From positions 322,332 through 386,331 of the forward strand of contig JBAZNR010000001.1 in the NCBI GenBank assembly GCA_041649175.1: DNA of 64,000 nucleotides, read 5' to 3'. Position numbers and translations under genes: made by a program. Every line of letters starts with the position of its first letter. Position 1 is the first letter of the stretch. The DNA is from Candidatus Omnitrophota bacterium. Lineage in GTDB: Bacteria; Omnitrophota; Gorgyraeia; Zapsychrales; JBAZNR01. This document shows positions 1 to 64,000 of this stretch, piece by piece. The notes beneath the pieces are model-generated. The model was not told the DNA's origin. It saw only the letters and a list, made by a program, of their open reading frames with translations, and did not search any database.

Positions 1-3000
1 CAATCTCCCGGTTTTCCTAAAGATTCAGGAAGGCCGTTGATGACAACCTCTGAGAAATTTGTCCCTAAATAATCTTTGCCGGCTTCTCTTAAAACACCAA
101 TTCTTTCCGCGGGAACTTTTTTTGATATTCCCGAAACATAAAGGCTGAAACTATCGCGCAGTCTGGTTTTTTCTAAATCCAAATTAAGTCTTTTAGCGCG
201 CTTGATAACACCTGCCCTGGTTAAATTAAGCCGGTCGGATAATTCCACCACATGCGGCAGGCGCTTTTCTTTTGAGGCGGCTATCTCTCTTTTGATCTTT
301 AAATAAGTATCGATAAGATCCACATCGTCTTCTTTAGTCAGCACAATATTTAATACCTTAGCGCGGTGCTGGGTCCACGTTATGGATTGATTTGTCCTTC
401 TTGCTAATTCGATTTTTGTCGGAGCTCTTTGATAAATTTGAATGAGCTCTTGATAAACAGCCCTTAAAACATCATCAGTGATTTCGGTCGTGAAAAGGCC
501 GCTGGTTACGTTTCTTGACTTATTCGCTGCGGCGTTTTCTGCGTTTACTGTTCCCCAGAAAAATGATCCAAACAATAAACCGCCCGCAAAAGCATTCAAA
601 TCAGTTTGATTGCTTTCTTTTTTTGGTTCAGATAAAAGCCCTTTTTTGCGCCCAGAGCTCGGACGTAATTCTGCCGCAACCCATGATCTCTTAGGCTGGA
701 GCATTTGATATCTTTGATAAACAATTTCCGCCGCTCTTGTCGCGTACCTAAACCAGAAATGATTGGCAACAGAATTGGTGTGTGCTAAAGAAGCTCCGAT
801 GTCAGGATGAGTCAACATTGATACTTTTCGTTTAAGTCTTTTAATATAATCTTCTTCCATCTCATGTAGCTCATCCGGGTTAATACCAAAAACACGGCAC
901 GCGATTTTATAATTATTCGGCTGATCCCCCAGGTTCCCAGGGGCTTGGTTGTAAAGATCAGGTTTCTCTCTCCTTAGAGCAGCAAGGCTACCGGCTTTCT
1001 TTAAGGCATCATTGATCAAGCCACAGATAGATGTTTTGACAAGCCTTTGAGCATTTTCAGTATTTTGATGCCTTTGCGTCTTTTGTTCGTAATATTTAAT
1101 TGATTTACTTAACTGCGAAAAGAGATACTGATTTTTCTGAATATGTTCACGGACTGCCCCCTGATGGCTAAGCTTAAGCATTTTACCGGCTTTTGCTTGA
1201 TTACCGTTATTCAACCGTAAGGCCGCGTAAATAACCATAGATTTGAATATCTTTACGGGAGGATAGAATGGAAAATCGAAAATCGCAGCATCTCCGGCTA
1301 TCGATTGTCTGTCAATTCCGTGCTTTCTTTTTAGAGCATCTCGATAGCTCTGATCTCCGCCCAGAATAATATCCGCTTCTTTATCTCTCCACGTTCGTTT
1401 CAGTACGGTAAGAATATACAAATACTCGATTTCTTCCCAAGAAGAACCCGCGCGCATAGCTTCTTGTAGTGTTGTAATCATAGTGGATATTTTAGCAGCA
1501 GGCTTTTTAAGAAGCATATATGTGGTCATGGTGCGGGCAAAAACGCTTTTTATCTCCTGCAATGATCTCTCTAATTTAGAAAATTCCATTTTTCCGTCAT
1601 TTATAAATTCATAAACTGTTTCTTTGTTTATGCCGAGTATCTGAGTAGATTTTTCTTTATTGTTCTTTGACAAAAGCAAAGCCGTATAAACAGAGAATAG
1701 TTTTAAAGTATGGACTGTCGGGAAGAAAGGCAAGTCAAGGTTAATAAGGCCTGACGGAACAGATTGATGAGTAAGCTGATACTTCCTCATGCTTTTTGCT
1801 AACGTATCCTGTTCTTGCATCCCTAACACAGCTCTAGCGTTTCCTTCATGCCATTTGTAAAATTGCAGAACATGGTAAATATATGACCGTTCGATCTCTG
1901 CCCATTTATGCTGGGCCAACAGGTCTTCCAAACGCTTCACCAAAGCTCTTCTTTGCTGGATAGAAATATTATCAAAATCAGATATTGCTTGAGAAACTTC
2001 TGTTGGGCTGTTTTCCACACTTCCCCATAAAATCGGCAAGATGGACGGAATAATAAAGGCATTAAGCGTTTTTTGCTTAGATAGGGACGGAATATTTTCT
2101 CTTACCGGTAAAGGCCAGCCGTGCTTTTCAAATTCGGCAATAATTTCAGCGCGGCGATTGTAATAAACGACCTTAAACGTCGAATTGATCATGCGGGCAA
2201 GTTCTTCCCAGGAAATCGGTTGCCAATCTTTTCGCGGAGTAGATTCGTAATAAGCATCCACTTCTCTCACCAATTGCTCCATCGAGAAAAATTGAAAAAC
2301 AATTTTTAATCCGTCATTGAGTTTTCCGCGCAGCGACGCGCTACCTGGGCTCATCGCTAATTGCTCAGCCAGGCGAATATTATTCCTATCCTTATCGATG
2401 ATATCTACTTTAAGATTTTTTAACCTTTGTACTTGCGTTAAATGATCCTGCAATTGAGCGAGTAAGCGATTTTTTATTTCTCTTACCTTGCCCTCTCGAA
2501 GGCTTAACACAATACCAACTTCGTCATAGCTCCACTCTTTACCGTTTTTGGTCCCTATTCCGTAAAGCAAGAAAAGGATGAGCCGCGACCGAGGATCTTT
2601 TAAAGAAAAAATAACACGCAAGAAAAGATCATTTTGCTGATCAACAATAAGCCATCTCTTTTCCGCGGCCACAGCGGCAATTTCGTTGAAATGTCGTTGA
2701 AGATCAGAAGCTTTAAATCCGGAATATTTTGAGAGAACTTCTAATGTCAAAGGAACACGCTGATCAGCGGGGATTTCTAGCAAGGCCTGTTCAACCCTTT
2801 GCGCAAAGGCTTCCCTTTCAAATTGAGGAACCGGGATAACCTTAACTTTAGGTTTCGGCGGATTATCTTCTTTTTTAGGTTCCCGTTTTACATTTGTGTT
2901 TTCTTCCTTGGGCCTCTTTACGGTAACGATTGCCAAAGGTTGGCGATTTTCTTTTCTGGGATTTTTTCTACCACGAGCCGCGCGCGAAGGCTTTACGATC

Positions 3001-6000
3001 TCTGCCTCTTTTTTCGAGATTAAATTTTGTAAAGCAGCTTTAAACTCGCCTTGCAGCCTCTTCGTCTGGGCCGCTTCCATTTTAGGATCATAATCTAAGG
3101 CTTCTTTAAGCGCCTCAGCCGCGCGGATAGTTTTTTCCAAATTGGCCCAGGAATGTTCTTTGATCTTTCCATCAACAATAAATTTCTTAAATTTTACCCC
3201 GAGTTCTTTTGTCTTCTTTCCAACGATCTGCCGGACGCGTTCTTTGGTCAATTCAAAAATACCGGCGATATCCTCCAAATACCAATGTTCTTTGGGATTT
3301 TCGGCAATGATCCGATAAAAGAGAACTAAAATCAAAGCATCTCTTTGATTGTTCATATCTGCTAAAAGCCACAAGATTTCTTCTCTTTGAGATGAGACAT
3401 CTAACTCCCATTCCACGTTAGGAACGGTATTCTGCTCAATTTGCAAGCCTTCGTGAGCTTCAACACTCTTCCGTCCTTCCACTGGATCCCCGAGGCGAAC
3501 AAAGGTAATGCGCGGTCTGCTTTCTTTTTGACCTCCATTGTTCCTCTGCTCTTTACTTTGTTTAGGAATTCTTATCGTACGGCTATACTTGGCCTTAAGC
3601 AAGTCATGGACTCTGTGCCGTATCCAATTAATGGTATAGGTCATTAATTGTATCCCGCGCTCTTGATCAAATCGGCCGGGCCTTAAAGCAAAGAAGACGC
3701 CTTCCCTGGCAATAGCCAGAAGTTCTTTATCAAGAAAAGCATGATTTAAATATTTCCCAAATTCTTGAAAAATCAATCCCGTATTGGACTCCACAAAATA
3801 ATTGATAATCTTTGACCTTAAATATTCAAATTGTTCCTGCAAAGACGCATCAAAACTGACCAGCCGATAAGCTTTCACTAATATAAGCTCTTCTTCCGGT
3901 GTAAGATTGTGGACGGGCTTACCTAAAATTGTCTTGGCCGCATTGATCGCCGTCATTTCCGCAGATTCCTGATCAGTATTATCGGTGGAAACTACTCCGA
4001 ATAGGGACATCGGAATAAAACAATTTACTGAACTGCCCTGGGACGACTCACTTTCAGGTTCCAAAAACTGCTTATCATCTCTGACAACTTTGTCTTGCAC
4101 AATGCGATAGTTCACTGTTCTTGCAGTCGCTCCGGTAAGATTTTCTCCTCTTTGCGGAAACGCCCTTCTTAAAGAAGGAGAAGAAAATTGAGCAAAGTTC
4201 CAGACGATGGCGCTGATGTTCAAATGATCTGTCTTTATAATGACTTTTTTGCCGCTTTTGTCCTTAAATCCGTCAACGGTAATCTCATAGGGGCCGACAC
4301 GAATTAACTTAGTAACATATTGCCCCGTTTTCCCGTCAAAGAAAATAACTTCATCACGTTCCCATTCAGAGTCCCGCCGGGAAATACCTAAACGGCGCTC
4401 AATATAAAATGGAGTTTTATAATACCAGCTCACTCGGGTAGAGCCGACGGTGGTCCCGCCTCCCTTGTTAAATGTCACTTCTCTGGGGCGAAGGATATTC
4501 CGGTCAAAATTCTGAAATGCCTTGACGCTAAAGGGGCGTAAGTAACCGTTTGTGATTGGAATAACTACGTTTGAATTATCCTTCCCGTCGCCCAGAAGAT
4601 AAAACACATTACCTTTTTTCTCAAAAACAACATAATTAACAGGATTATTCCGCTCAACAACAGCCAAGTAGCGCGACTGAGCCCTTTCTCTGTAAAAAAT
4701 AACCGGAAATGGATCACGGGAATAAAATCTAATAAATCGAATTCTCAGATTTCCGAACAAAATTTCGTTATGGTCTTTTGGCAACGTAAAAGGTTTATTT
4801 TGGCTTAAATATTTCATCACGGCTTGTTTGCGCGGCAGCTGATAAACATTTTCTAAAACCCGGTCGGCAAATTCCGCTGCCGCGCCGTTATAATAAAGAT
4901 CAACCGAAGTAGCTTTGTCTCTGAACTGGATTTCTTCCTTAATGGACGGATAATTTTTATAGGCCGGAACCCAAGCAAATATTCGGCCTTCTTTTCTCCT
5001 CAAAATAAGGACATTGTCTCGGTCGGTTAAGTCAACCAACTTCACCTCAACACCAACAATGCGTTCAACTCTCACCACGCCGGAGAGCTCCTGCGGAAGC
5101 AAAATAACAAGATCCCCTCCCATTTTTATTCTTGGTTTTGACAATACGTAAGTTAATTTCTTTTCTCCCGCGCTGACTAATCCGAACAGAACCGGAACGC
5201 CCAATATAAAACATCCTAAAGATTGCGTCTGATTTTCCGATCGGCTGATACCCGCTACTTGTTGCGGTATTTCATCTTCCCATGCAGGCGTAAAGGCAAA
5301 ATAGATAAGTTCCGTCGAATGGCCCAAATGATATTTCTGAATAAAATCTTTAACACGGTTATACCGGTCTCGAGAATCTTCGGCGAGAAACTCTTGATTG
5401 GTCCTCGGGAAAATGTGGTGCAACTCTTTTCTTTGAGCTCTGTTAAGATCCTTTCGCAGCATAGCCTCAACGATCAAATGCGCCCACAAATACGGCTTAT
5501 GCTCTAAAACAAGGTTGGTGTAAAACAGCTCTCTTAAGATCTGTTTACGGGCGTGTAAATTTTCTTCTGAGAAAGATTTTCGGCTCAGATGTGATTTAAA
5601 AGCGGTCCAGTGATATACAGCCCGCAAATAGACCATATCTAAACGATTCGTGACCCTCATCCATTGACGCTGTCCAAAAGGTGTGCGAGCCCACCGGTAT
5701 AATTTTTGATAAAGGTATGTTTCTTCGATCTCTGTCACAAGATTATGGGGTCTTCCGGATAAGACATCAGAACCAAGCGGGATAACGATTTGCTCGATAT
5801 TTTGATCCTGAAGAAAATAATCCAATCTAGAACGCGGCGCTACGGCATACCCTCTGGCCGCTTGGATAGATTTGAACAACTCCGCCTTGCGTTGTCCACG
5901 GTTTCCTCCGATGCGATTAAATAAATTCCAACGTTCGGCTAAAAACTTAACCGTTTGCCAACGGGATAATTCATGCAAAATGATGATGCGGTCAACTTCC

Positions 6001-9000
6001 ACAAAATTTTGCTGCGGCAAGATATCTGTGGCCTGTTTTTGCCCGTTGTGATCGGTATAATAAAATGCTTGATACTCCTCAGGAACATATTCTAGCGGCA
6101 TCATACCGGCAAAAATAGAATCGCCTAAGATCATGACCTGGATCTCCGAAGTTCCTACCAAAGACCAGCGTCCGGTTTGAAGCATCTGGTAAGTTACGCG
6201 CGATTCTAAAATCGGGTCACGGCTAATTAAGAGAACAACTTCTTTTTCTTTGGATACATTATTTTGGATAACATCACAATTCCACCGGGAACGTTCAATA
6301 AAGGGAAGTAAATTTTCGGCAATGAGGAATATATTTTTTCCTTGTTCTTCCTCGGCTAATTCCGATCCGGAGAAAACAATATTAAATTTCCTCAAGAATT
6401 TAACCACATCCGGCAAGGGATCGCTCAAGCTCACGGTAATTTTCTGCGCGTCGTCCGAAGAAAGCTTTCCGTAAGCCGCCAAATTCACCAAACGAACAAT
6501 GAGATTCTTTAACTTTCTAGAGATCGGTGAACGCAAATAATAACCGATGGTTCTCCACGCTGTTAGACGCTTATGTATTTCTTCTTCAGCCTTTTGGGCG
6601 TCTTTCTCCAGGCTATGCGCGACAAGAACAAGCCAATTTCTTAAACGCTGTGACAAGGTATCCAGGTATTCATCTTCTTCGACGAGCTGCCTCGAAAAGA
6701 TCGTTTGAGGATCATTTTTATCTTTCTGAAATAAACGCACGCCGTTTTCACCCGCCATCAAAAGACTTTCAGAAATCCCAAAATACCCTCTTTGCGGAAT
6801 ACTGTTTTGAACGGGGTGAGATGTAACGATCATATTGACTTCCCGCCCGGTCCTTCCAATAAAATGGATCTTGTCAATAAATCCCTCACGAGATTGAATG
6901 TCAGAGCGGATATCACCCATCAAAGGCGAATAAGCGTCAAACAAGGCTTTTAAAACAGGGGCTTTTAATGATTCGATGCGTCTTAGATCCCGTTCCATCA
7001 TATCCAAAGCGGTCACGCCGGAAAATCCCGCGTAATTAGCTTCCAAGACCGGGCCGCCATGAATAACTAAAATGCCCTGACGCCCGTAATGATAGATATA
7101 ATAATGTTCTTTCATCCAGGCAAACATTTCCTGCATCAAGGGATCTTGCCGGAAATTTTCCATAGTCAAAGGCTCTTGGCCTTCTTGAAGCAAGGTTTGA
7201 TTATATTCTTCAAAAATAAATTTCCCACCGCCCATCGCAAACCAAACTTTCGTTAGCTGCTCGTGATCCATCATGGCCGCGATAAATTCAACTTCATTCG
7301 AACCATAAAGAAGAATAAGGGGAAGTCCGTCGACTTCTTTGTAATGGCGCAAAATTTGATAAATACGTAAATTTTCTTTTCCCTTGCCGAATATGTCCCC
7401 CGTTAAAACGATCTTGGTGGCGCCTTGCGCGAGCGCTTCCGCCATTAAAAGCTCTAAAAGTTCACCGTCGCCTTCAATATCGCCGATAAAAGCAGTACGG
7501 GGAACCTTGGAAGGTTTTCCACTTTTGTATTTCTCGATCTCACGGATAAGTTTTAATTTATTGCGGGCAAAGATCAGTTTCTTTATTTGAACCGCCAACT
7601 CCTCAATGCCGATGACCACCTGGGAACCGGAACGAGGGTCTTCATAAAAAAGCCCTTTAGCGGATTTAATGAGTTCCAACAGCGGCGGTAAAACAATAAG
7701 AAGCCCGTCTCTGGTATAAATTTCCCGGACACTTTTTGTAATATAATAATGATTTGCTTTTAGTTTTTTCTTCAACTCCCGAGCAATATCAATAAGTGTG
7801 CGCAAATGGTCGTGGGAAAATATTTTCTTATGCTTATCCATGTACACAGCCATTTGTTCCAATGTCTCATCCGAAAAGATAAGAAGCTTGGCCAATTTAG
7901 TCAAAAGGCCGAATATCTTAACCACATTTTTAGCCAACATGCGGTCTTGGCCGATGATTTCCCTGCTGTAGGCTAAAACCATTTCTTCAAAGATCAATTC
8001 CCAAACCTGTTCGGCGATCTCAACGGGCGGATGCGTTTTAGGGTCAGCTAAAGCCTCATGAAGAAGAACCACGCCGTCTTGCGGCGACTTATAAGCTAAG
8101 TGCTTAAGATCAGGGCTGAATTTGAAAATAGCTCCGTGAGCCATCTCATCTTTCAGCCGTTCTCTGATGACTGAAAATTCTTTTTCGTTTTGCCCTAAAA
8201 TTTCCGTAAGAAATTCTATGTAAACTTCTCCGTCGGCAATGATGTTGTCTCCTTGAAGCGTCAGGCTTCCGGGATGGCGGGCAAAGAAGTATCCGTTGAC
8301 CGTCCCAAAAATAAACGGAACGGAAAAGATCGGTAAGGCGGCAAATGAATTAAGCGTTTGATTTGATCTATGTTGCGGCTCTAAACGCACAACTCCGGGC
8401 TCATGAATAGATTGCACGCGCCGGCTGATGATCGTTTTATGTTTTAATCCGGCCTTTGTGAATAACGGTTCCCAAATAAATAATCGGTCCAAATAAATAG
8501 CAAAGATCCCATAGCCTTGAGATGAAAAATGTTTTGGCAATTGCTTTAAAATAGCCTGCATTTTTCTCTTAGAAATAAAATCGTTGTGGTTATTTGTCTT
8601 TCCATCGACCGGTTCCGGCGCATGCCAAATGATCACATCGTAAATACCCAGCCCACGCAAACTATTGTGTTTGAACACGCGAACGTTGTTTGTCAAGCCG
8701 TTATGCACAAGATTATGCCCCGTCAGCAAAATACTTTCTTCGGCAATATCGATCGCGTCTACCTGCTTGGCCCCGGCTAATATAGCGGCGATGACATCAA
8801 TGCCGTTTCCGGGCCCGATCACAAGAACTTTGCTTTCAGGCTTTAAAGTGCCCGGGATCTCTAGCGCGCGCACCATGCGCAGAGACTCAAAATGACGAAT
8901 ATCATCGGCAAAAACGATCGTCTGATAGATTCCGGGATAATTAAATACGGTTAGCTCACGGCCGAACATAGGGACAACGGAAGGCGATAAAAGGCTTGGA

Positions 9001-21000: not shown

Positions 21001-21719
21001 GTAACAATGATAGACTGGAATTTTCCGTCTTTAATATTGATGCCCAGTGTAAATAAATTGCTTTTCCCGTCCTGATCCTGCTTGGTCTGATAAAAATCAA
21101 TTTTGTAAGCATCAATGACCGCCAAAAGGTTTTCTAAAACTACCCCTTGCCCTAAGCGATGACGCAAAGCGCTTCTTATTTCTACCGTTATATCCGTCAT
21201 GAAGACAACTTTGACCGGACGGATCTTCTTTAAAGCAAGCTCCCAATCAAGTCTTGGATTTATTTTGTAACGTTCCTGGCTGAACAACAGAACCTCGATC
21301 GTATCCCTGAGGATATCTTGATGATCTGATAAATATTTAATGTCTTCTTGAATGATCTCTTCTTCGCTTAAATGGGGTTGAAGGATACGCGTTTTTTCAT
21401 GTTCGAGGAATCCTAAAACAGCGGCCGGGTGGTCTTTCATCAGCTCAAAAACTCTCCAGTGAATAAGCAAAGTCCCTTCGCTTTCGGAGACCATCATCGC
21501 CGGGCCGGGTAAAGCAACGATGACAATGCGAGTTAATTTCTTAGAAACAATAAGATTACCTAAGTATGGAACGATCTCTTCGACCTGCCCGTAGAGCTCT
21601 TCTTCTTCATCATGGGTGAGAAAGCCATTATGGATCTTAGAAATAAAAAACTTGCTCAGGACATTGGCAGATAAAAATACGGTGGGCCTTTCAATGGCGG
21701 CAAACTCGGCCGGATAAGC
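1..21719 (-). CDS. Segment C of the giant ORF: C-terminal side, 3' end beyond the window start. The first in-frame ATG is at 21495-21497, but protein-like sequence begins at 21719.
   Basis: Frame decoded at 57, 181, 541, 781, 2101-2340, 3181-3300, 7381, 8761, 9841, 10021, 10561, 12901, 15361, 20281-20460 and 21481-21719. Confidence 0.6.
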
Positions 21720-57700: not shown

Positions 57701-60700
57701 AATCGCCGGAATACCAAAGGGTGGGGTCTGAGCCGTTAACGATCCCGACGATCTTTTCTTTAAATTCTGGGAGGACAACGATCTTTGTGATTTCGGCGTG
57801 TTCTTCGGCAACGCCGTTGATGACATTGGCCATGCGCGCCAAACCAATAGCCGCGTGGGCAACATAACCATCGGCAACAACTTCTCTGGCTCCATCCCAA
57901 TCGCGGATCAGATCCGGCCCTAATAAGGTTTTAAGCCACTGGGCCGGCCAAGAAGGAAGCGCCGCGCGTTCGGGAGTGTGAGTAGTCATTACAATTTTTG
58001 TTTTATCAAAAATACTTTTCTGGTTTTGGCTATTGAACCAGTCAATATCATTTTTCATAGCGGTCGCCACAAAAACCAATTGTGGTTCATTGAGCCGCGC
58101 GACATTGGGGTGGATCTCTAATTGCTTCATTAATTCCACATAGGCGCGGGCAAAAAAGCCGAATTGGCGCGTCTGGCGTTCATCGCCGGGATACAGGCGG
58201 TTGAAGATAGAATCTTCGCCTAAATGGCGGATCAAGAATATCGGAATACCATTACGATTGATCCAATAAACCTGTACGGTATTATGCGGATGATGATTGA
58301 AATCAACACTAAAGGTAAGCGGCACGAGTTGATTGCGGTTATCTAAGATCACCACCGGTTTGATGCCGGATTCATTTTGCCAATTGATCTGGACACGGCT
58401 TCCCTGCGCGTCGTAATAACCTTCGTAAAGCGGCATCACGCCGATAGCGGAGAATTTTTTCAAGAGATGATATGCACCCCAGGTTTCGCCGGTTAAAAAT
58501 CCAAGCCCGCCGGCGGCTAGGGCTTTTTGAGCCAGGCCTTTTAATTCCGGTAAGAAGGCTTCCAGGGAAACATCGGTCACGATCGGTTTGCCGGATGTTC
58601 TGATGCTATTTAACATCGGCCCCAGCGTGTCATCGGCGATAACAAAACCAAATATTCCAAATCCAAAAAAGCTTGGAGTAAAACTGAAAAGTCCCGTTCT
58701 TTCGCCTGTGGATAACTCATTAGGGACGTTTCTGTTCTGTATCTCAGAACTGTCCCTTTGAGCTATAGCCTGTGAATTCGGGGACAGTTCTGAGCGCTGC
58801 GGCAGAAACGTCCCTAAATCTAAAATAGACCGTATTAATGATTTGCCCGTAATGCGTTTAATGGCCGGCCCGTCTGTTTTTATGGAACAGCCCAGTAATT
58901 CTGATAAATGGAAGAATGTTTGAATACCAATTAATATTTTGAGAGAAACTGAATTAACAAAGAATATCGTGATGCCGCCGGCAACAAAAAGGAAGTGAGT
59001 GGCCAGCGGCGCAAATAACACAATGAGGCGTTGAGAATCAGTCGCACGTTCGCTTCTGTGGTGCCGCACATTATATCGGCTCATCAACCATGCCGGAATG
59101 ATGTGCATCAAGGCATGAATAACGGGAACGCTAAACGTAGTAGCGGCAACAACGGCGCTCATCATGGTGATGCGCGATAAATCCAACGCTATTCCAATGT
59201 TATCTTCGATTTTTAACGCGATGAAAGAAGCAAAAATAGAGTAAACGAAGTATAGTAAAGACCCAAAGCCGATATCTTGTTTCTGCCAGTAATGATCACT
59301 GATAAATCCATTTTTGTTAAGCCCTAAGAGCTGACTTTTAATATATTTGAATATGTTTTGGATTCCCAAGCCAAAAACAATCGGGCCAAAAGCGAAAAGC
59401 TTTGAAGTGCGTCCGACTTCTGCCGTAACTTTCTCAACTAGATTTTTTTGCTCAACGGAGACAACGCCGAAACGCTCGGAAGAGTTCGGGATCCAGCCAT
59501 GAGAAAAATCAGTTGTCACGACAACCGTTGGAGTTTTGACTAAGTAAGCGGCGTGAACAATAGCTGTATCGATGGTCACCACTTGGTTAACTTGGCGTAA
59601 AAGCTCAATAGTGGCCGCGCGGCTTTCCCAGTCGGTGTTGACTTGGCGGCTGATATCCCAAAGCTTTACGTTAGGGTGTTGCGAAAATCCTTCGATCAAA
59701 TATCTTAAACGCGCCGAAACCACATTTTCAATATTGGTATTAACGATCACCGTGAAGCCTTTTTGCAAAAGCTGTTCAATGATCCCGGCCCAATTTTGCC
59801 TGGATGAATCTTCGGATGATGTACTAGCTAAGAAGTTAACGAAAATAACCGGCGATGTAGAGGAAATACTGTTTCCGGTAAAGAAATCCCGAACGATTTT
59901 CTGAGTTTGAGAGAAGCTCGGCAGAATATCTGTTTCGCTGGGAAGCTCAAATCCATATTCTAATAAAGCGGCGCGAATACCCACATGAGCATCTAATCTG
60001 CCCCATGTTTGACCGCTTAAAATATTGATCACATTACCGCCGTAAATATCAATGCCATGCATATTGATAACCATGTCGTACAACGGGAAGATCACGTCAC
60101 GTAATGTCGATATCTGATAAAGGCTAGGCATATCAAGCTGGGCAAAACGAGCTGTCTTGTGATCGTTTAATTCTCGATAGGGATCCTCCATGCCGTTTAA
60201 ACTCAAGGCAAAGATGCTCAAATTCTCTAAATTCGGGAAATTATGCGAAAGTGTTTTTGCGATGATCGGTAAGTAAGCCAACATCTTTCCCCATGTTCCG
60301 GTCCCGGCATAAATGAAGACTCTTTTTACTTTTGAGAAATCTAAGCTTCGCACTTCTTCTGCTCTCGGCGTTAAATCTCCGTTATTGAATAATGATTGGG
60401 ATCTGGAATCTCCCTGCGTCGCTACAAAGCCAAAAACCGCCACAGGAACAAACGCGAAGCTGTGAAGAGCGCTGACACTAGAATTTGAAATAAAGGCTGC
60501 TGCCGGGTGATTCCCCAATCCAGCCACGGAAAGATTGGAATCATTTTTATTCGCCGGCAGCAGCCCAATATTTTTATTCGCTAAACGCCATACGCTATAC
60601 GCTGAGCCTTTAACTCTGTCCCCTATTTTTACAAACCAATCTCTAAGCAAAGAAACGATTCCGGAAATTCCTAACCCCAGCACAAACGCGGCGAGGTTTT

Positions 60701-63700
60701 GGCCGGAGTTTTGATCGGAACCCTTAGAGCTCTTGGGATCAAATTTGACCATAGGAACAATTTGTATCTGCGCTTCCATACCTTCGGATTCAACCAGTCG
60801 ACCTTGATCATTAACAAACAATCCTGCCTCTTTCGCAAACATTAACCCGGCACCAAAATCATCACCGTTTTGAAGAAGAGCGCGCACCGTATCAATATGT
60901 TCTTGCGTGGTCAGCGTATTCGGATCGATCTTCTCTTCTTTTAAGTAATTAATCACCCAATCGCCTAATTTTTCTATGATCAAAGCACGGATTTGAACGT
61001 CGGTGAGCTCGCGGATCTTTTGAGTTTCTTGGGTCTTTTGGGTTGATTGGGTCTCTTGAGTTCTTTGGGTCTTCGTCATATCCCAAAGACTACGTAGCCT
61101 AATATAAGCAAAGAATGCTCCCAGGCCAATCAGCGTTGAAGCAAAGATCGTGACAAGCAAAGTAAGAAGAACGGTTCCGACAACAATATCCAAAGCCAAT
61201 TTAGATACGAATTTGATCGTTTTGACGGCAAAGTTTTTAACACCCTTCCAACCGAACTTGCGGTAAACAATAGCACTCACGACAATCGTTGCCATTATTT
61301 TCGCGACGGCCAGACTAAAAATGATCGGATGGGACGCAACAAAACTTTCCACAAATCCTTTAAGATTTAAGAATAATCCGGCTAACATAGCGATCGTCGC
61401 CGCAACAATTGTTGTCGGGTCAAAAAATCCTCGATCACTTCTAGAATGATAATGTTTCATGCGATAACTAAGCGTCACACTCGGCAACATAGCCGTCGCG
61501 AGAGTTAAAATCGCAACGCCCGCGCCCACGTAAAGCACGATGGGTGAACTTTCGATAACGTAAAATCCGAACGTAAATATCGTCGCCACAAACCCGATCA
61601 TAAATGTCTTGGCGGCAAACTTGTGATTGTGATGACGGCGTTTCCAGGCAGATTTTAAATTTGATTTAGCAATGATCATCGCTATCGTCAGCGCGAGAGA
61701 AGCCGCGATCACAATCTTCATTCCTAAAAGAACATTATCTTCATTGCTCAACAAACCGTTTAAGGAAGATGTTAATCCGCCAAAAATTCCCAGAACCGGC
61801 ATAAACGTGAACGCGTTGAGAGCAATTTTTTTGGTGAGTTCACGTTCTAAAGCGGCGATGACCGTATTGATCATGGCGTTGGCTTCTTCTATTTCTTCAC
61901 GGGTCGTAAGTCTGCCTACCGCGTGGAATTCGGCAGAATCATATTTATTTTCAAAAGTTTCAAAGGCGGCGATCGTTTTAGAGTCGTTGATAAGTTTTTT
62001 CATGACGATCAGGCCAATTTTTCCAAAAACCAGAGACCACCAGCCGCGCTGAGCCTTATAGTTAACGCCATCGGTGCTATGAACAACACTATTGGGAAGC
62101 TCATCACGGTAATCGCTTTTCAGTTTTTTCAAATCAACAATGGCTTTTTCAATGGAAGATTGCCGCTCCTGAGCCAAGATACGCCCAAGGGATTTTTGTA
62201 ATGTTTTAATGTCTTTTTCGATAGCGTCATGAAGAGGAAATGTCGTTATGCCGTTTGACCTTACGGGAATACTTAAAGCTCTCCGGGCTGATTTTTGTAA
62301 TTGCTCAATGGATCGTTCGATATCTTCCCGGCCGGCTTTCGCGGCAATGACTTTGACGACTGTTTCACGTAAACTTACATCATCTAAAATTTGAATAATA
62401 TATACGATAGCCTGATGAGTGCCAAATTCACCTAAAGCTTCAATGGTATCAAGCTTAAACTTTTGTTCTTTTTCTTTTCTTAATAATTGCTTTCCTAAGA
62501 TCTCAATAGCTTTTTCGCCTAAAATCACTTGAACCGCTTTAGCCTCGCCGTGGCGCCTTAAGAAACGCACTTGCCAAGGCGTTGGAGTTTTTATTCCATA
62601 GGATTTGAGAATAATGCGTGCCAAAACTTTTTCATTTTTGATCTCTTTATAATTAATAACCCAGGCCAAAGCCACCACGGCTAACGAAAGCGCGAGTGTT
62701 TTAAAGCCGTCTGAACTTAAAATTCCGTTAAGATCCATCATCGCCAAAACGGGCATGAATGTAAACGCATTAAGAGAAACCCGCCCGCCGTTGGCACGCA
62801 AATCGGCCACTTCTTTCATTAGCGCTTCGTGGAATTCCGCAACCAATTTATGATCTGAGGTAGAATACAATCGTGATGTTGCGGCGATCACTTGCCTTAT
62901 CGTCGTATAGCGAGAAATAGTTACGAAGATATTGTGAACTTCCTGGGCTACTTCGCCGGGGCGAAGTTCACGAGCGTGTTGGCCAAGAATGCCTTTGGTT
63001 AAAATATAGTCCAGGTCAATATTCAGGATAATGCCTTCGGTAAAATTAGGCGCATTGCCGCGCATGACCGCTTCTAAGTCGCTGGAAACGGCCGACCAAT
63101 GGTCCATATCTTCGGAAAGGACTATGCGGCCGTGCTTGGGATAAATCCAATACACATTGCCGACCAAATTAAATCTGAGTAAGAATCCTATCCAATTGCC
63201 GCAGTCGATCTCTACGGCGCGGCTATTGGTTAAAATCCCGATAATATGCGTATCATCGCTATGATAATCAAGAAGGACATGCGGTAAATGATTGGAGATC
63301 ACGCCTTGACGGATAGCCTGCTTGATGACAGAAAACGTTCCGCCGTGATCATCAAAAATATCGAACGGGATACGAGAGGCAGTTGCAGGCTGATTCCCCA
63401 ATCCAGCCACGGAAAGATTGGAACCATTTTTAGATGCCTGCAACTGCCCAATTCGATTATTTTTTAAATTAGTTTTTCCATTTTTATTCGCGGCATTACG
63501 CGCGAGGACGATCAAGATCCCTAATGCAAAACCAAAAGCGGCCGGAATAAAGATAAAAGCTTCCTCTTGCCCTTGTTTGCCGAAATCCTTATGAACATCT
63601 TCCACAAACACCACTGTATACATCCAAGAGTTGCCGGGGCCAAAATCGCGGGAAAGACGCACCAACCCTTGTTGTTCTAATCTTTCTAAAGTTTTCTGCA

Positions 63701-64000
63701 TACCAACATTGTCGTATTCGGTCGATACGGTCATTCTGTTCTTTTTATTAACCTGAAGGAAGCTGATATATTCTTTGACCAAGGCAAGGCCGATTCCGGA
63801 TTTACGATATTCTTTTCGTACGGCAATAAAGTTAAGCTGAGCCTCATCATCCGTCAATAAATACACCAAATAACCGGCAACTTCCTTGCCGTTTTTGGCT
63901 AGAATAAAATTCATTTCAAAAGAAGCTTCGCTGGTAAGTTGAGCATCAGCCCATTCCGTTAACATTCCGTTCCAGTCAAACATCTTTTCCGGCGCTATGC
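1..64000 (-). CDS. Interior of one giant minus-strand ORF (more than 21,000 codons in-window, both termini outside the window). It is a chimeric chain of enzyme- and regulator-like modules, locally frame-disrupted at 21720-21900 and 58742-58801.
   Basis: About 60 hand-decoded 60-nt blocks between 57 and 63960 are all in the same frame (plus-strand codon start divisible by 3), protein-like and stop-free. Contiguous decodes include 31501-33300, 50041-50250 and 21481-21720. Module junctions at 541-600, 20341-20460, 29761-29880 and 31501-31560 have no stop, no ATG and no RBS. The other two minus-strand frames are full of stops. Confidence 0.8.
150..240 (-). other. HTH segment (sigma region 4-like), the last recognisable module before the window start.
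   Basis: Decoded SDRLNLTRAGVIKRAKRLNL at 181-240. NFSEVVINGLPESLGKPGD at 2-58 runs out of the window. Confidence 0.35.
540..602 (-). repeat. Conserved hydrophobic junction motif (protein-level repeat), instance DLNAFAGGLLFGSFFWGTVNA.
   Basis: Decoded codon by codon. Consensus over at least 45 instances: L-[NS]-[AS]-F-x-[GP]-[FL]-x-[PF]-x-x-F-G-x-V. Confidence 0.8.
780..960 (-). other. J-domain (DnaJ-like, HPD motif).
   Basis: Decoded RLKRKVSMLTHPDIGASLAH at 781-840. Manual translation of the preceding residues gives NYYKIARAVFGINPDELHEMEEDYIK. Confidence 0.5.
3100..3985 (-). other. Module: sigma-70 family factor domain (regions 2-4).
   Basis: Decoded ENPKEHWYLEDIAGIFELTKERVRQIVGKKTKELGVKFKKF at 3181-3300 (region 4.2 HTH). 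Region 2-like LTPEEE and TINWIRHRVHDL...RTIRIP blocks upstream are from manual translation, with AINAAKTILGKPVHNL decoded at 3901-3960. Confidence 0.6.
6600..7600 (-). other. Module: PPP-family (calcineurin-like) metallophosphatase.
   Basis: Decoded AQGATKIVLTGDIFGKGK (GDxxDRG-type block) at 7377-7430. Manual translation adds FIGDIEGD upstream and LYGSNEVE downstream (GNHE-like). Confidence 0.5.
8400..8900 (-). other. Module: SAM-dependent methyltransferase (PrmA-like GxGxG fold).
   Basis: Decoded ESKVLVIGPGNGID at 8796-8838. Confidence 0.45.
9000..9950 (-). other. Module: inositol monophosphatase / CysQ / FBPase-family phosphatase-like.
   Basis: Decoded NFGHTNFIWVIDPIDGT (IMPase motif W-[IV]-D-P-[IL]-D-G-T) at 9846-9896. 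Confidence 0.6.
10300..11000 (-). other. Module: HD-domain segment (SpoT-type metal-dependent hydrolase motif).
   Basis: Decoded AVALLHDVLEDY at 10570-10605. Confidence 0.45.
12900..13010 (-). other. HTH segment, sigma-70 region 4-like.
   Basis: Decoded DGQPWSREQIAKYLDV and VSPQRINQIISIFEKPLKAAM at 12903-13008. Confidence 0.4.
14300..16600 (-). other. Module: TPR-like helical repeat region.
   Basis: Decoded GVVYTVGICFQETGHRKEALA at 15361-15420. Nucleotide periodicity and manual translation suggest repeated A-x-x-x-Y-x-x-A-L-x-L-x-P helix pairs. Weak. Confidence 0.3.
20368..20427 (-). repeat. Junction motif instance QLNAFIGGLIPLAFGLVDPS.
   Basis: Decoded at 20341-20460 with flanks YYVDGFKKPADA / KENDLKARVESALEILFERKERLTRGNIA and no stop. 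Confidence 0.8.
21720..21900 (-). other. Frame-disrupted segment 1. About 60 codons read cleanly only in the frame whose codons start at plus coordinates with remainder 2 mod 3. The main frame has 8 stops here (21720, 21735, 21753, 21795, 21813, 21822, 21846, 21897).
   Basis: The shifted frame gives GEETLKALADILKRFIEDNTALAWTYEGRDRRDAYEQEIRRLHRDSPQLELGTVPDLRGF, with no ATG and no stop between 21923 and 21722. The implied +1/-1 indels lie in short runs (minus-strand AAA at plus 21902-21904 and TTTAGG at plus 21719-21724). Confidence 0.7.
21736..21773. repeat. Palindromic element 1: a perfect 14-bp inverted repeat (cagggacagtcccc / ggggactgtccctg) with a 10-nt loop, inside frame-disrupted segment 1.
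   Basis: Read directly. Left arm 21736-21749, right arm 21760-21773. No U-tract follows on either strand. Confidence 0.85.
21897..58742 (-). CDS. Segment B of the giant ORF (about 12,000 codons). The first in-frame ATG after the upstream stop is at 58614-58616, but coding clearly continues from 58740, so the true start is uncertain. It ends at a TGA at 21897-21899.
   Basis: Same frame decoded at many points between 22441 and 58740. The plus-strand triplet 'tca' at 21897-21899 reads TGA on the minus strand. Confidence 0.6.
22965..25400 (-). other. Module beginning with a lipoprotein-like signal peptide (RRKFLQQFAVIVALAAVSGPLLEGCSKK); remainder unassigned.
   Basis: Decoded KFLQQFAVIVALAAVSGPLL and LEGCSKKNPTEPQEEEPLTP at 25262-25380. 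Confidence 0.45.
27495..29080 (-). other. prs: Module: ribose-phosphate pyrophosphokinase (PRPP synthetase, Prs)-like.
   Basis: Decoded VIIVLDDIISTGGTM (PRPP-binding site) at 27690-27750. Manual translation also gives RRFPDGEVEV... and ...VFMPYFAYARQ (the Prs RFSDGE and PYFGYARQ-type blocks). Confidence 0.65.
29082..29160 (-). repeat. Junction motif instance GSISLLNAVIPSFGMVIGYLAKLIKGLLG. Its 3' 30 nt are identical to 29763-29792.
   Basis: Decoded. The DNA string caatcctttgatgagcttcgctaaatatcc occurs at 29082-29111 and again at 29763-29792. Confidence 0.8.
29763..29850 (-). repeat. Junction motif instance QLTALNAVIPTFGMMVGYLAKLIKGLLG (duplicate of the one above).
   Basis: Decoded at 29761-29880. 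Confidence 0.8.
29830..31475 (-). other. Module: polytopic membrane segment of unknown function.
   Basis: Decoded DVAEQELNAFTFGFILPFALFGLVNS at 31475-31555. Manual translation of the remainder shows multiple hydrophobic stretches down to AAAVYVQILSQQQLFIEGNH (30061-30120, decoded). Confidence 0.4.
31550..33320 (-). other. aceK: Module: isocitrate dehydrogenase kinase/phosphatase (AceK)-like.
   Basis: Thirty consecutive lines (31501-33300) were decoded with no stop. They include ...YRDKRAYMIGRI... and the C-terminal ...GRVCCYDYDEIDSILNYNFRDKPKPQDDWESMMDESEWISVSDGDVFPSEL..., which closely resembles the AceK C-terminal region of E. coli ([25 protein letters not shown]...PWYSVSPGDVFPEEF). Confidence 0.65.
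34500..35435 (-). other. Module: L-asparaginase / GatD-like amidohydrolase.
   Basis: Decoded PRPAGIVLTHGTDT at 35103-35145 (asparaginase hinge motif). The upstream VIVLNAGGTINMAGE (TGGTIAG-type) is from manual translation. Confidence 0.55.
37410..39075 (-). other. gpmI: Module: cofactor-independent phosphoglycerate mutase (iPGM, GpmI-like).
   Basis: Decoded QGPLLFIIMDGVGLGS at 38962-39009 (iPGM N-terminal block) and NGITIVTADHGNADEM at 37640-37690 (iPGM C-terminal ADHGN block). Confidence 0.7.
42170..43560 (-). other. Module: tandem LOG-family (Rossmann-fold nucleotide-binding, PpnN/YgdH-like) domains.
   Basis: Decoded LIFFPGGMGTMDMLFEA (the LOG PGGxGTxxE motif) at 42395-42445. An upstream half with GGGPGVMEAG comes from manual translation. 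Confidence 0.55.
46930..47740 (-). other. Module: class I SAM-dependent methyltransferase-like, paralog 1 of 5.
   Basis: Manual translation gives KVLIVGVGRG...FEYHSIN...DLIIMGYCVLSYIPDQ...LLRPGGYLF. HHYVM was decoded at 47325-47340. Paralogs lie at 45420-46185, 44600-45365, 39140-39915 and 36440-37345. Confidence 0.45.
47800..50165 (-). other. Module: receptor-like Hanks-type Ser/Thr protein kinase. An N-terminal domain and a TM segment precede a kinase core at about 48450-49250.
   Basis: Decoded AGWVHGDIKPDNI (catalytic loop HGDxKPxN) at 48675-48710 and IVDFGLSVRKGRPMKGG (DFG) at 48605-48655. Confidence 0.7.
50200..51440 (-). other. Module: secreted-type beta-rich protein ending in a T9SS (Por) C-terminal sorting domain. 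The CTD spans about 50200-50459.
   Basis: Decoded QNYPNPFNG at 50432-50459, the canonical start of the T9SS CTD. Then ...ASGIYFYRLESDQGVSEAKKMQLL, running with no stop into the next module: HSMIFPVFGLVALGMV (50165-50215), EGVLNFDELIKQGWTVYRSGKNTILF (50041-50160). Confidence 0.7.
51520..53825 (-). other. Module: RelA/SpoT homolog, long-form (p)ppGpp synthetase/hydrolase (HD, synthetase, TGS, ACT).
   Basis: Decoded TIIAGLLHSWHISE (HD-domain LLHD-type block) at 53535-53578. The synthetase-like (...GYYAIHVDF...) and C-terminal ACT-like (...IEGIVTVDIERPQ...) segments come from manual translation and were not all re-verified. Confidence 0.5.
56830..58640 (-). other. Module: alpha-glucan (glycogen/maltodextrin) phosphorylase, GT35-like.
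   Basis: Decoded DVWVSMPRPTREACGTSD at 57215-57270, which resembles the GT35 PLP-site block R-P-x-x-E-A-S-G-T-S-x-M-K. The Lys position reads Q here (EACGTSDQR). The remainder is from manual translation. Confidence 0.55.
58722..58815. repeat. Palindromic element 2: a nested hairpin. Outer 13-bp stem agggacgtttctg / cagaaacgtccct (58722-58734 / 58803-58815), inner 12-bp stem cagaactgtccc / gggacagttctg (58744-58755 / 58780-58791), 24-nt apical loop. It shares the GGGACAGT/ACTGTCCC core with element 1.
   Basis: Read directly. A frame TGA at 58743-58745 sits at the foot of the inner stem. Codons 58742-58801 read only in the shifted frame (PQRSELSPNSQAIAQRDSSE), and the main frame resumes at 58740 (EQNRNVPNELSTGERTGLFSF). 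Confidence 0.85.
58743..64000 (-). CDS. Segment A of the giant ORF as a strict gene caller would see it: N-terminal side, 5' end beyond the window, ending at an in-frame TGA at 58743-58745 inside palindromic element 2.
   Basis: The frame is open from 63960 down to 58746. The plus-strand triplet 'tca' at 58743-58745 reads TGA on the minus strand. Confidence 0.6.
58830..59345 (-). other. Module: membrane fatty-acid hydroxylase / sterol desaturase superfamily-like (His-box enzyme).
   Basis: Decoded PVIHALMHI (H-x3-H) at about 59105-59130 and IPAWLMSRYNVRHHRSERA (H-x-H-H) at 59045-59100. Flanking segments are hydrophobic. Confidence 0.5.
59400..60420 (-). other. Module: glycosyltransferase family 9 (ADP-heptose:LPS heptosyltransferase)-like.
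   Basis: Decoded HGIDIYGGNVINILSGQTWG (60001-60060) and VTIDTAIVHAAYLVKTPT (59540-59595), which resembles the GT9 motif T-x-D-S-G-x-x-H-L-A-A-A-x-G-x-P. The rest comes from continuous manual translation. Confidence 0.45.
60508..60548. repeat. 41-nt DNA repeat copy B.
   Basis: See copy A. Confidence 0.8.
61021..61075 (-). repeat. Short in-frame tandem repeat encoding a T/Q-rich run (TKTQRTQETQSTQKTQETQK).
   Basis: Plus strand reads gagtttcttgggtcttttgggttgattgggtctcttgagttctttgggtcttcg, with a period of about 9-12 nt. Confidence 0.6.
63391..63431. repeat. 41-nt DNA repeat copy A (tgattccccaatccagccacggaaagattggaaccattttt), encoding ...SNLSVAGLGNQPA.
   Basis: A 40/41-identical copy lies at 60508-60548 (...SNLSVAGLGNHPA). 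Confidence 0.8.
63560..64000 (-). other. Module: GNAT-family N-acetyltransferase-like, C-terminal part (start beyond the window).
   Basis: Decoded ...NFIAVRKEYRKSGIGLALVKEY... at 63790-63870 (GNAT motif A, R/Q-x-x-G-x-G/A) and TEWADAQLTSEASFEMNFIL at 63901-63960. Confidence 0.5.

Follow-up and report, generated by a model that had tools for sequence, protein, structure and literature searches.

A giant gene of head-to-tail enzyme modules with a recurring junction peptide between them

Giant open reading frames (ORFs) have been described in the Omnitrophota by several groups. Seymour et al. (2023) reported ORFs of >20 kb in most classes of this phylum, which are poorly conserved and encode many predicted transmembrane (TM) helices (PMC10066038). 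West-Roberts et al. (2023; bioRxiv 10.1101/2023.11.21.568195) present Omnitrophota giant ORFs of up to 85,804 amino acids (aa) under the name 'Archaeovorins', which carry GT5, methyltransferase, TPR, HATPase_c, Lysine_decarbox and NUDIX domains together with in-line glycolytic enzymes and many hydrophobic segments; there, the cleavage points of these proteins are called unknown, and cleavage is raised as an open question. From a catalogue of 916 proteins with lengths of 10,000 aa or more, Nielsen and Lui (2026; bioRxiv 10.64898/2026.06.07.730766) set apart 'multi-enzyme metabolic clusters' as one class, with members as long as 147,155 aa; the Pfam modules of this class group around PF08241, PF02518, PF00583 and HD, and around PF08323. 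Genes of type II secretion systems or type IV pili (T2SS/T4P) flank 13 of 14 published giants, 80% of the proteins are sequence singletons, and hydrophobic or TM segments make up about 2% of residues, or about one segment per 370 aa (bioRxiv 10.64898/2026.06.07.730766). Here, we describe a stretch of 64,000 nucleotides from contig JBAZNR010000001.1 (the window, always meant at its full length), which is an internal 64-kb piece of one real, uninterrupted giant gene. The encoded polypeptide is a string of enzyme and regulator modules, and a short hydrophobic peptide recurs at the junctions between them.

A single stop-free reading frame

Frame 2 of the minus strand contains 0 stops across 21,332 codons (window 3-63998, six-frame translation), and each of the other five frames contains 943-1643 stops, with a longest open stretch of 160 codons. 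At the stop rate of 4-8% per codon in these other frames, a stop-free run of such length by chance is excluded. The ORF runs on past both window ends; the window thus covers an internal fragment, and the full ORF exceeds 63,996 nt. The guanine-plus-cytosine (GC) content at the three codon positions is about 0.51/0.36/0.43, and this composition, together with a purine bias at position 1, is even across every 1,000-codon block, which points to coding sequence of one genome throughout and speaks against a chimera.

Signals that would mark separate genes are scarce along the ORF. Shine-Dalgarno (SD)-plus-start patterns occur 14 times in the whole ORF; three of them stand close to junctions, and they have no systematic tie to the module starts. 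Sites resembling sigma-70-type promoters and terminators are found at the level of shuffled sequence (20 kb tested). An operon misread as one gene was therefore rejected, as neither stops nor systematic SD-plus-start patterns nor an excess of promoter-like or terminator-like sites is present at the module boundaries. No internal restarts were found along the ORF, and no tRNAs, Rfam families, ribozymes or introns were found in the window.

Repeats contribute little to the gene. Tandem Repeats Finder gave two trivial arrays only, and the DNA repeats amount to five short families. When all modules were compared with each other, the only paralogous set consisted of four methyltransferases (25-41% identity), besides a few short duplications, and a giant of the tandem-repeat adhesin or toxin type was rejected on this basis. 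An 18-nt tandem repeat of 3.2 copies lies at window 61016-61073 and codes for low-complexity TQETQSTQKTQETQK. A 92-nt segment encoding '...NLSVAGLGN(H/Q)PA...' is duplicated with 80% identity at window 60494-60585 and 63377-63468; both copies stand just upstream of hydrophobic segments, as a local duplication of linker sequence.

Enzyme and regulator modules

For module assignment, overlapping chunks of 5,000 aa and the single modules were scanned with Pfam, NCBIfam was used in addition, and curated cut-offs were applied. Along the polypeptide, about 34 modules follow one another without a repetitive pattern; more than 20 distinct families are matched, and for about one module in three neither Pfam nor NCBIfam gave a family (Table 1). 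Several matches extend over nearly the whole profile. For example, the cofactor-independent phosphoglycerate mutase (iPGM) covers positions 3-500 of 504 in TIGR01307 (430 bits against a cut-off of 331) with the catalytic GNSEVGH present, AceK covers positions 6-578 of 582 in NF002804 (610 bits against 488), and the phosphoribosyl pyrophosphate (PRPP) synthetase covers positions 3-297 of 309 in TIGR01251 with an intact DDIISTGGT motif. The GGxGTxxE motif of the LOG module is likewise intact. The GT-B module is near full length in TIGR02094 (positions 16-593 of 600) at 91 bits, below the cut-off, and the RelA/SpoT-like module matches HD_4 (E = 3.6e-5), RelA_SpoT (E = 0.0025) and TIGR00691 (E = 1.5e-11), all below curated cut-offs. 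Six modules are methyltransferases dependent on S-adenosylmethionine (SAM), and the four paralogues among them have VGVGRG as motif I rather than the usual DxGxGxG. In the asparaginase module, LNAGGTI stands in place of the nucleophile motif TGGT (Thr to Ala) and the second motif, HGTDT, is intact; judged from these motifs, the module may be a pseudo-enzyme or have an altered function. No peptidase domain was found in the window by the Pfam scans.

The AceK module illustrates how complete a module can be. It aligns to residues 23-587 of a stand-alone AceK of 606 aa with 45% identity, and all 47 invariant columns of a 50-sequence AceK alignment are kept in it. Its AlphaFold2 model has a mean predicted local distance difference test (pLDDT) score of 83 and a predicted template modelling score (pTM) of 0.83, and superposes on E. 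coli AceK with a TM-score of 0.91 (Foldseek); both junction flanks have pLDDT <50 and are not packed against the AceK fold. The nearest AceK relatives are ordinary single genes in ordinary neighbourhoods. Many of the modules are complete copies of enzymes and regulators that are free-standing elsewhere, and several keep their catalytic motifs.

A second feature common to the modules is the near absence of cysteine. Only 24 cysteines are present in 21,332 residues (0.11%), in unrelated modules alike, and the average in AceK homologues is 0.76%; we refer to this as an approximately tenfold depletion. The cysteine that is most conserved in AceK homologues (76% of them) is a tyrosine in the AceK module. 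Three of the 24 cysteines lie inside junction peptides, and two of these (in LGCF and VNCF) occupy the small-residue position before Phe. The low content fits exported proteins or proteins translocated unfolded, or an avoidance of cross-links in a giant chain.

Most of what had been proposed in a sequence-only reading of the window agrees with these results. Its central claim, a head-to-tail string of unrelated and elsewhere free-standing modules in one frame, is borne out by the stop-free frame and the profile matches. The absence of a stop, start or ribosome-binding site between modules is in keeping with the stop count and with the 14 unsystematic SD-plus-start patterns, and its statement that the gene is no repetitive adhesin agrees with the module comparison, Tandem Repeats Finder and the repeat search, which found nothing substantial. 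Among the families decoded by hand, AceK, iPGM, PRPP synthetase and LOG pass curated cut-offs; GNAT, the Hanks kinase, IMPase, the asparaginase domain and sigma-70 region 4 were recovered by Pfam, and GT9 stands at its cut-off. RelA/SpoT with HD and the phosphorylase-like module were matched, yet below curated cut-offs, and six methyltransferase modules were matched where five had been counted. A J-domain and a His-box hydroxylase gave no profile match at E <= 0.01, and the PPP phosphatase gave only an 18-bit Metallophos match below the cut-off. The claim that such a concatenation had not been described does not stand, as multi-enzyme giant ORFs are already published for the Omnitrophota in both preprints (bioRxiv 10.1101/2023.11.21.568195; 10.64898/2026.06.07.730766).

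A polytopic block lies between AceK and PRPP synthetase. It has no family assignment, a weak Fic match is located nearby (E = 0.008), and a 74-nt duplication with 86% identity is present within it at 29071 and 29752.

The junction peptide and its relation to the membrane

The hydrophobic peptide that recurs between modules is 12-21 residues long and has the pattern L-N-[A/S/G]-F ... [F/W]-G-x-V; it was first noticed among the hydrophobic segments of the polypeptide. An iterated hidden Markov model (HMM) found 32 copies, a strict regular expression (regex) found 26 against 0.03 expected in locally shuffled sequence, and 33 copies were mapped when variants are included. The peptide begins after a polar flank with L (27 of 31 copies), N (16 of 31, otherwise H, S or A), A/S/G/C (31 of 31) and F (29 of 31). 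After 5-13 residues rich in F, G and P, it ends with F/W (26 of 31), G (29 of 31), any residue and V (31 of 31), again followed by a polar flank. The core is devoid of K, R and D, and it is enriched 3.8-fold in F, 2.1-fold in G and 1.9-fold in P. AlphaFold applied to an alignment of 29 copies gave a pLDDT of 61 and no secondary structure.

The junctions closely frame the modules. AceK starts 7 residues past one junction and ends 2 residues ahead of the next, and iPGM fills its inter-junction space, starting 19 residues past one junction and ending 12 residues ahead of the next. PRPP synthetase ends 13 residues ahead of a junction, the asparaginase domain starts 12 residues past one and the HPr-like domain 4 residues past another, and the methyltransferases occupy the whole space from junction to junction. 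The C-terminal sorting domain of the type IX secretion system (T9SS) kind ends in '...KKMQLL' and directly abuts the junction-like LHSMIFPVFGLV. Such a domain normally works only at a free C-terminus, and its internal position, ending at a junction, suggests that a whole captured gene, sorting domain included, was fused in frame.

All synonymous codons are used at the conserved L, G, V and S positions of the junction, and this free variation indicates that selection acts on the peptide rather than on repeated DNA. Two explanations at the DNA level, a repeat and a recombination site, were rejected, as the codons vary and similarity at the DNA level exists in one subfamily only (D1). A translational pause was not supported, since the codon rarity of the junctions (-0.315) does not differ significantly from the reference (-0.284 +/- 0.019). 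With Asn in no more than 16 of 31 copies, asparagine-dependent autoproteolysis at L-N was rejected. Ten junction windows compared with NCBIfam and Pfam gave zero matches at E <= 10, sortase-type signals and the prepilin methylation motif included. C-terminal sorting signals (LPXTG, PEP-CTERM, PGF-CTERM and GlyGly-CTERM) were set aside, as the short junction form has no basic tail. A tripartite layout recalling C-terminal sorting signals is seen in only three long variants.

Searches for sequence relatives were made with several queries. An exact 44-mer had no match in genome, metagenome and viral collections. All proteins retrieved with the AceK-centred query were free-standing AceKs with at most 45% identity, about 605-660 aa long apart from one of 936 aa, and none of them shares the module flanks. 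A multi-module query of 2,968 aa gave no match, in a search where chance word matches probably overwhelmed the choice of candidates. The alignment of the four methyltransferase paralogues found no relative in a collection of 5.8 billion proteins, GTDB genomes, JGI metagenomes and IMG/VR. Against 1.84 billion representative proteins, the junction profile gave a single match, to a public protein of 231 aa (P0121), which is a spurious ORF derived from a repeat (SLHCFTPFRFIAIWG... repeated) and is unrelated to the window. This negative profile search argues that the motif, in its exact form, is lineage-specific.

The absence of the source contig and of any close relative from every collection searched could raise the suspicion of an artefact: an assembly that is a chimera, a wrongly joined operon, or DNA that is synthetic or generated and not natural. 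We consider this very improbable for several reasons. Mis-assembly and sequencing errors break frames and do not remove about 1,000 expected stops, the codon-position composition is uniform along the ORF, and the shared junction peptide is written with varied synonymous codons. In addition, the AceK module retains all invariant residues of its family and folds confidently, and the tenfold cysteine depletion across unrelated modules implies long co-evolution in one gene.

On the Hessa scale, the insertion free energy of the best 19-residue segment averages +5.0 kcal/mol over the 33 junctions (range, +1.7 to +9.1), with no junction below +1. By comparison, 14 other segments of the ORF are below +1, with -3.6 kcal/mol as the lowest value, and resemble true membrane helices; Kyte-Doolittle scans gave about 25 TM-like segments in the 21,332 aa. 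Its short length and its abundance of Gly and Pro make the junction appear unsuited to form a canonical membrane helix. The neighbouring SAM- or ATP-dependent modules 9|10, 12|13, 13|14 and 14|15 are separated by one junction each; if the junctions spanned the membrane, half of these modules would end up outside the cell. In 19 junctions the upstream side is richer in basic residues than the downstream side, and in 7 the reverse holds (p = 0.03). This bias is uniform and not alternating; a series of uncleaved spanning helices could not keep the same orientation throughout.

These data bear directly on the possibility that the junctions are ordinary TM helices, by which successive modules would alternate between the cytoplasm and the periplasm or cell surface, an arrangement to which topology predictors point in published giants. 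The hydrophobic, uncharged core with polar flanks is in line with it, as is the low cysteine content, which would suit a location outside the cytoplasm. The window ORF also equals published giants in its density of hydrophobic segments only when the junctions are counted. We nevertheless regard ordinary TM helices as quite improbable: besides the length, composition and free energies given above, with alternating modules, every second one, be it a SAM methyltransferase, a kinase, AceK or iPGM, would lie outside the cell, and the strongly conserved boxes at both ends of the junction are foreign to generic TM helices.

Table 1. Positions of the ORF, its modules and the junction peptides in the window, in the reading direction of the gene within each group.
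Feature	Window position	Strand	Residues (aa)	Basis
Single ORF, 21,332 codons, open at both window ends	3..63998	-		stop counts; codon-position GC
GNAT acetyltransferase domain	63678..63923	-	26-107	PF00583, E = 7.6e-12
GT9 heptosyltransferase-like domain	59436..59879	-	1374-1521	PF01075, 22 bits, at cut-off
Alpha-glucan phosphorylase/GT5-like GT-B module	56880..58520	-	1827-2373	TIGR02094; PF08323, PF00343
RelA/SpoT-like module with HD domain	52398..53681	-	3440-3867	HD_4, RelA_SpoT, TIGR00691
T9SS-type C-terminal sorting domain, internal	50220..50453	-	4516-4593	PF18962, 38 bits, cut-off 27
Hanks-type protein kinase domain	48573..49040	-	4987-5142	PF00069, 42 bits; HGD...DFG present
SAM methyltransferase, paralogue 1 (module 7)	46920..47738	-		PF08242; internal paralogy
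SAM methyltransferase (module 9)	45393..46178	-		PF08241
SAM methyltransferase, paralogue 2 (module 10)	44592..45353	-		weak PF08242; 37% identical to module 7
LOG/PpnN-type domain	42825..43328	-	6891-7058	PF03641, 133 bits; TIGR00730, 119.5 bits, cut-off 96
HATPase_c domain	40095..40511	-	7830-7968	PF02518, 51.6 bits
SAM methyltransferase, paralogue 3 (module 13)	39132..39917	-		PF13649; paralogy
iPGM, full length	37437..39017	-	8328-8854	TIGR01307
SAM methyltransferase, paralogue 4 (module 15)	36354..37352	-		PF13489; paralogy
Asparaginase N-terminal domain	34827..35405	-	9532-9724	PF00710, 78 bits
AceK, isocitrate dehydrogenase kinase/phosphatase, full length	31551..33299	-	10234-10816	NF002804
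Polytopic membrane region, about 9 canonical TM-like segments	29487..31409	-	10864-11504	Kyte-Doolittle and Hessa scans
PRPP synthetase	27516..28457	-	11848-12161	TIGR01251, 133.7 bits, cut-off 113
HPr-like domain	21864..22139	-	13954-14045	PF00381, 24.8 bits, cut-off 23
TPR array	14706..16337	-	15888-16431	TPR_8, TPR_2, TPR_1
IMPase/CysQ-family phosphatase	9402..10124	-	17959-18199	PF00459, 74 bits; DPIDGT present
PrmA-like methyltransferase domain	8628..8849	-	18384-18457	PF06325, 32.5 bits
Sigma-70 region 4 HTH (helix-turn-helix)	2448..2597	-	20468-20517	PF04545, 36 bits, cut-off 24
ALNAFTFMPVLGIFGGLTSS, variant junction	61764..61823	-		HMM
LHSFAFVPVAVFGFV, junction	60423..60467	-		HMM and strict regex
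LFSFTPSFFGFGIFGFV, junction	58641..58691	-		HMM
LHSFAPLMFLFFGIWGTV, junction	56760..56813	-		HMM and strict regex
INAFVPGFGISGVFGFV, junction	55536..55586	-		HMM
LSSFIFSPFGLSVFGIV, junction	53817..53867	-		HMM and strict regex
LHSMIFPVFGLV, junction-like, directly after T9SS-type sorting domain	50184..50219	-		sequence reading
LSAFAGFGFVPVIIGLV, junction	47739..47789	-		HMM and strict regex
LPAFVGFGFVPVLFGSV, junction	46869..46919	-		HMM and strict regex
LSAFAGFGFAPFVLPVLFGEV, junction	46179..46241	-		HMM
CFVPLFLFGTVAS, variant junction	45354..45392	-		HMM
LNSFIALLPFGILGLV, junction	44544..44591	-		HMM and strict regex
ANSFILPFAPMIFGLV, junction	42105..42152	-		HMM
LNSFLLPFVFAPISALGVV, junction	39918..39974	-		HMM and strict regex
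LQGFVVPFIFAPLAFIGSV, junction, 19 residues before iPGM	39075..39131	-		HMM and strict regex
LNAFLLPSFFAFFGFV, junction, 12 residues after iPGM	37353..37400	-		HMM and strict regex
LNSFAGLFVPFAFWGTV, junction, 12 residues before asparaginase domain	35442..35492	-		HMM and strict regex
LNGFAGLLMPFGFWATV, junction, 7 residues before AceK	33321..33371	-		HMM and strict regex
LNAFTFGFILPFALFGLV, junction, 2 residues after AceK	31491..31544	-		HMM and strict regex
LSAFFGFGLSAFGFV, junction, 13 residues after PRPP synthetase	27432..27476	-		HMM and strict regex
LNSFVSSSFLFLGTV, junction	26460..26504	-		HMM and strict regex
LNGFVAFTPVVFGIV, junction	25953..25997	-		HMM and strict regex
LAAFAPMFAFGALAGIWGVV, junction	22884..22943	-		HMM and strict regex
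VHGFAPSFIFIPTIFGVV, junction, 4 residues before HPr-like domain	22152..22205	-		HMM and strict regex
LNAFIGGLIPLAFGLV, junction	20376..20423	-		HMM and strict regex
LYGFLGFGAFGLFGVV, junction	17514..17561	-		HMM and strict regex
LAAFIPNIFSLGLWATV, junction	16563..16613	-		HMM
LNAVIGPLGFSMLFAVFGTV, junction	13398..13457	-		HMM and strict regex
LNSFAALPIFSVPFIFGTV, junction	8298..8354	-		HMM and strict regex
LGCFILGVPVLFGLV, junction	5175..5219	-		HMM and strict regex
VNCFIPMSLFGVV, junction	3990..4028	-		HMM and strict regex
LNAFIIPSILPILWGSV, junction	2016..2066	-		HMM and strict regex
LNAFAGGLLFGSFFWGTV, junction	546..599	-		HMM and strict regex
EEAFIFIPAAFGFALGILIVLARNA, long variant: junction-like start (EEAFIF...), TM-like helix, basic residues	63492..63566	-		hydrophobicity scans
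Third long variant: ELFIF..., then full-length TM-like helix, basic residues	11643-11714			hydrophobicity scan
LNGFVLYGVLMSLATLLVIFIVKIGRQ, long variant: LNGF, then full-length TM-like helix, basic residues	9198..9278	-		hydrophobicity scans

Interpretation and comparison with known systems

We consider it likely that the window belongs to a real giant gene of the known Omnitrophota multi-enzyme kind, that its product is membrane-associated, and that the junctions are anchors or hinges which do not span the membrane and are under selection at the protein level. Such a gene would have grown as whole genes were captured in frame and, to some extent, by duplication within it, as in the four methyltransferase paralogues, and the junction peptide would have been kept by selection acting on the protein. 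In the predicted membrane-associated product, the junctions would serve as short anchors or hinges at the membrane surface, and the ATP-, SAM- and PRPP-dependent modules would be held on one side of the membrane. The junctions may also be recognition sites for processing. We infer membership in the class of Omnitrophota multi-enzyme giants from architecture and domain repertoire, not from sequence relatives.

Several points weigh against this proposal. First, the searches gave no sequence relative of the ORF, of the junction profile or of the methyltransferase family, which leaves architecture as the ground for the Omnitrophota assignment. Second, if the motif were general to Omnitrophota giants, fragments of these giants would be expected among the matches in the 1.84 billion proteins, and none was found. 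Third, the Hessa free energies come from a simple additive scale and not from a trained topology predictor. Fourth, a cysteine content as low as 0.11% typifies exported proteins more than those on the cytoplasmic side of the membrane. Fifth, the loss of the nucleophile Thr in the asparaginase module means that not all modules need be active enzymes.

A different function of the junctions can be considered, in which the polypeptide is a processed polyprotein. Here, the junctions would be cut, for example at L-N-[A/S/G]|F, by a membrane-associated peptidase of the prepilin-peptidase, rhomboid or signal-peptidase kind, and about 34 mature enzymes would be released. Several module families are normally homo-oligomers, which is awkward within one chain, and the modules are complete from the first to the last profile position. 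The sorting domain that normally needs a free C-terminus ends exactly at a junction, and the strict small residue followed by Phe, with conserved boxes at both ends, resembles the recognition site of an enzyme. The uniform, non-alternating bias of basic residues around the junctions also agrees with cleavage. In the literature, cleavage is raised as an open question and T2SS/T4P genes stand beside 13 of 14 giants. Against these points, no peptidase domain is present in the window, the junction windows match no curated signal even at E <= 10, and the junction has neither a Glu at +5 nor a basic residue at -2, unlike class III (prepilin) signal peptides, which were rejected as an identity on this account. 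Taken together, we judge a processed polyprotein to be possible but rather unlikely.

In an extended form of this idea, which we regard as doubtful, the junction would be a dedicated signal for both processing and sorting, and the gene would encode a bacterial polyprotein or 'enzyme train', whose approximately 34 enzymes and regulators would be cut apart at the membrane and deployed separately. AceK, the RelA/SpoT-like module, LOG, the kinases, the GNATs and the methyltransferases could then possibly be cysteine-free effectors for a host or prey cell. If true, this would answer whether and where giant proteins of the Omnitrophota type are cleaved.

With the junctions as non-spanning anchors or hinges, which we prefer, the window does not present a new kind of object, and its added value is a module grammar, that is, a conserved junction peptide combined with cysteine avoidance. 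Few objects in bacterial genomes are as poorly understood as multi-enzyme giant genes. Using the junction coordinates, the beginning and end of each module become explicit, the motif can be searched in other giants, and the question of cleavage becomes directly testable. Cysteine depletion provides a second testable clue to where the protein resides.

Multifunctional autoprocessing repeats-in-toxin (MARTX) toxins are proteins of 3,500-5,300 aa with repeats-in-toxin (RTX) repeats and an internal cysteine protease domain, whose cleavage sites follow a Leu. Like the window ORF, they join unrelated enzymatic domains head to tail with defined sites between the domains, and they provide an analogy for a delivery vehicle carrying a string of enzymes. 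Neither RTX repeats nor an internal cysteine protease domain had Pfam matches in the window, and in contrast to MARTX effectors, the modules here are enzymes of the housekeeping type delimited by a hydrophobic peptide. In viral polyproteins, such as those of flaviviruses, complete proteins are joined in one frame, with short hydrophobic segments and small residues at the cleavage position. The window ORF differs from them in being a gene of cellular type, at least 10 times longer, with no protease module seen and with cleavage only a candidate, and a single conserved motif, present in more than 30 copies, serves as its delimiter. Repetitive giant adhesin and toxin genes (RTX, Big, TSP3 and dockerin-type; e.g., in Chlorobium chlorochromatii) share the extreme length and low cysteine content, whereas the window ORF has no tandem domain repeats and consists of enzymes and regulators.

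The Omnitrophota giants are the closest described systems. As far as the available texts on the published giants go, AceK, iPGM, PRPP synthetase and asparaginase are not named among their domains, and neither West-Roberts et al. (2023) nor Nielsen and Lui (2026) mention a linker, a junction peptide or motif, or the content or tenfold depletion of cysteine. SecA-DEAD and C39/S8 peptidase domains, which in those texts lie mostly near the ends of the giants, with the C39/S8 peptidase close to the N-terminus, are not found in the internal 21,332 aa here. In other respects, the likeness is close. The type of the Omnitrophota giants, the 39,678-aa ORF of Velamenicoccus archaeovorus LiM, is also a single huge ORF without tandem repetition, and the window ORF, with at least 21,332 codons, lies above the length of at least 10,000 aa that delimits the multi-enzyme giants. 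Sequence is poorly conserved or singleton in the window ORF and in most published giants alike. The 33 junctions and about 25 TM-like segments together give approximately one hydrophobic segment per 370 aa, as in published giants, a density that holds only with the junctions counted. All seven hallmark families given for published giants (PF08323, PF08241, PF02518, PF00583, HD, TPR and Lysine_decarbox) are present in the window ORF, and a tiling of many families, none of them dominant, with metabolic enzymes in line is common to both.

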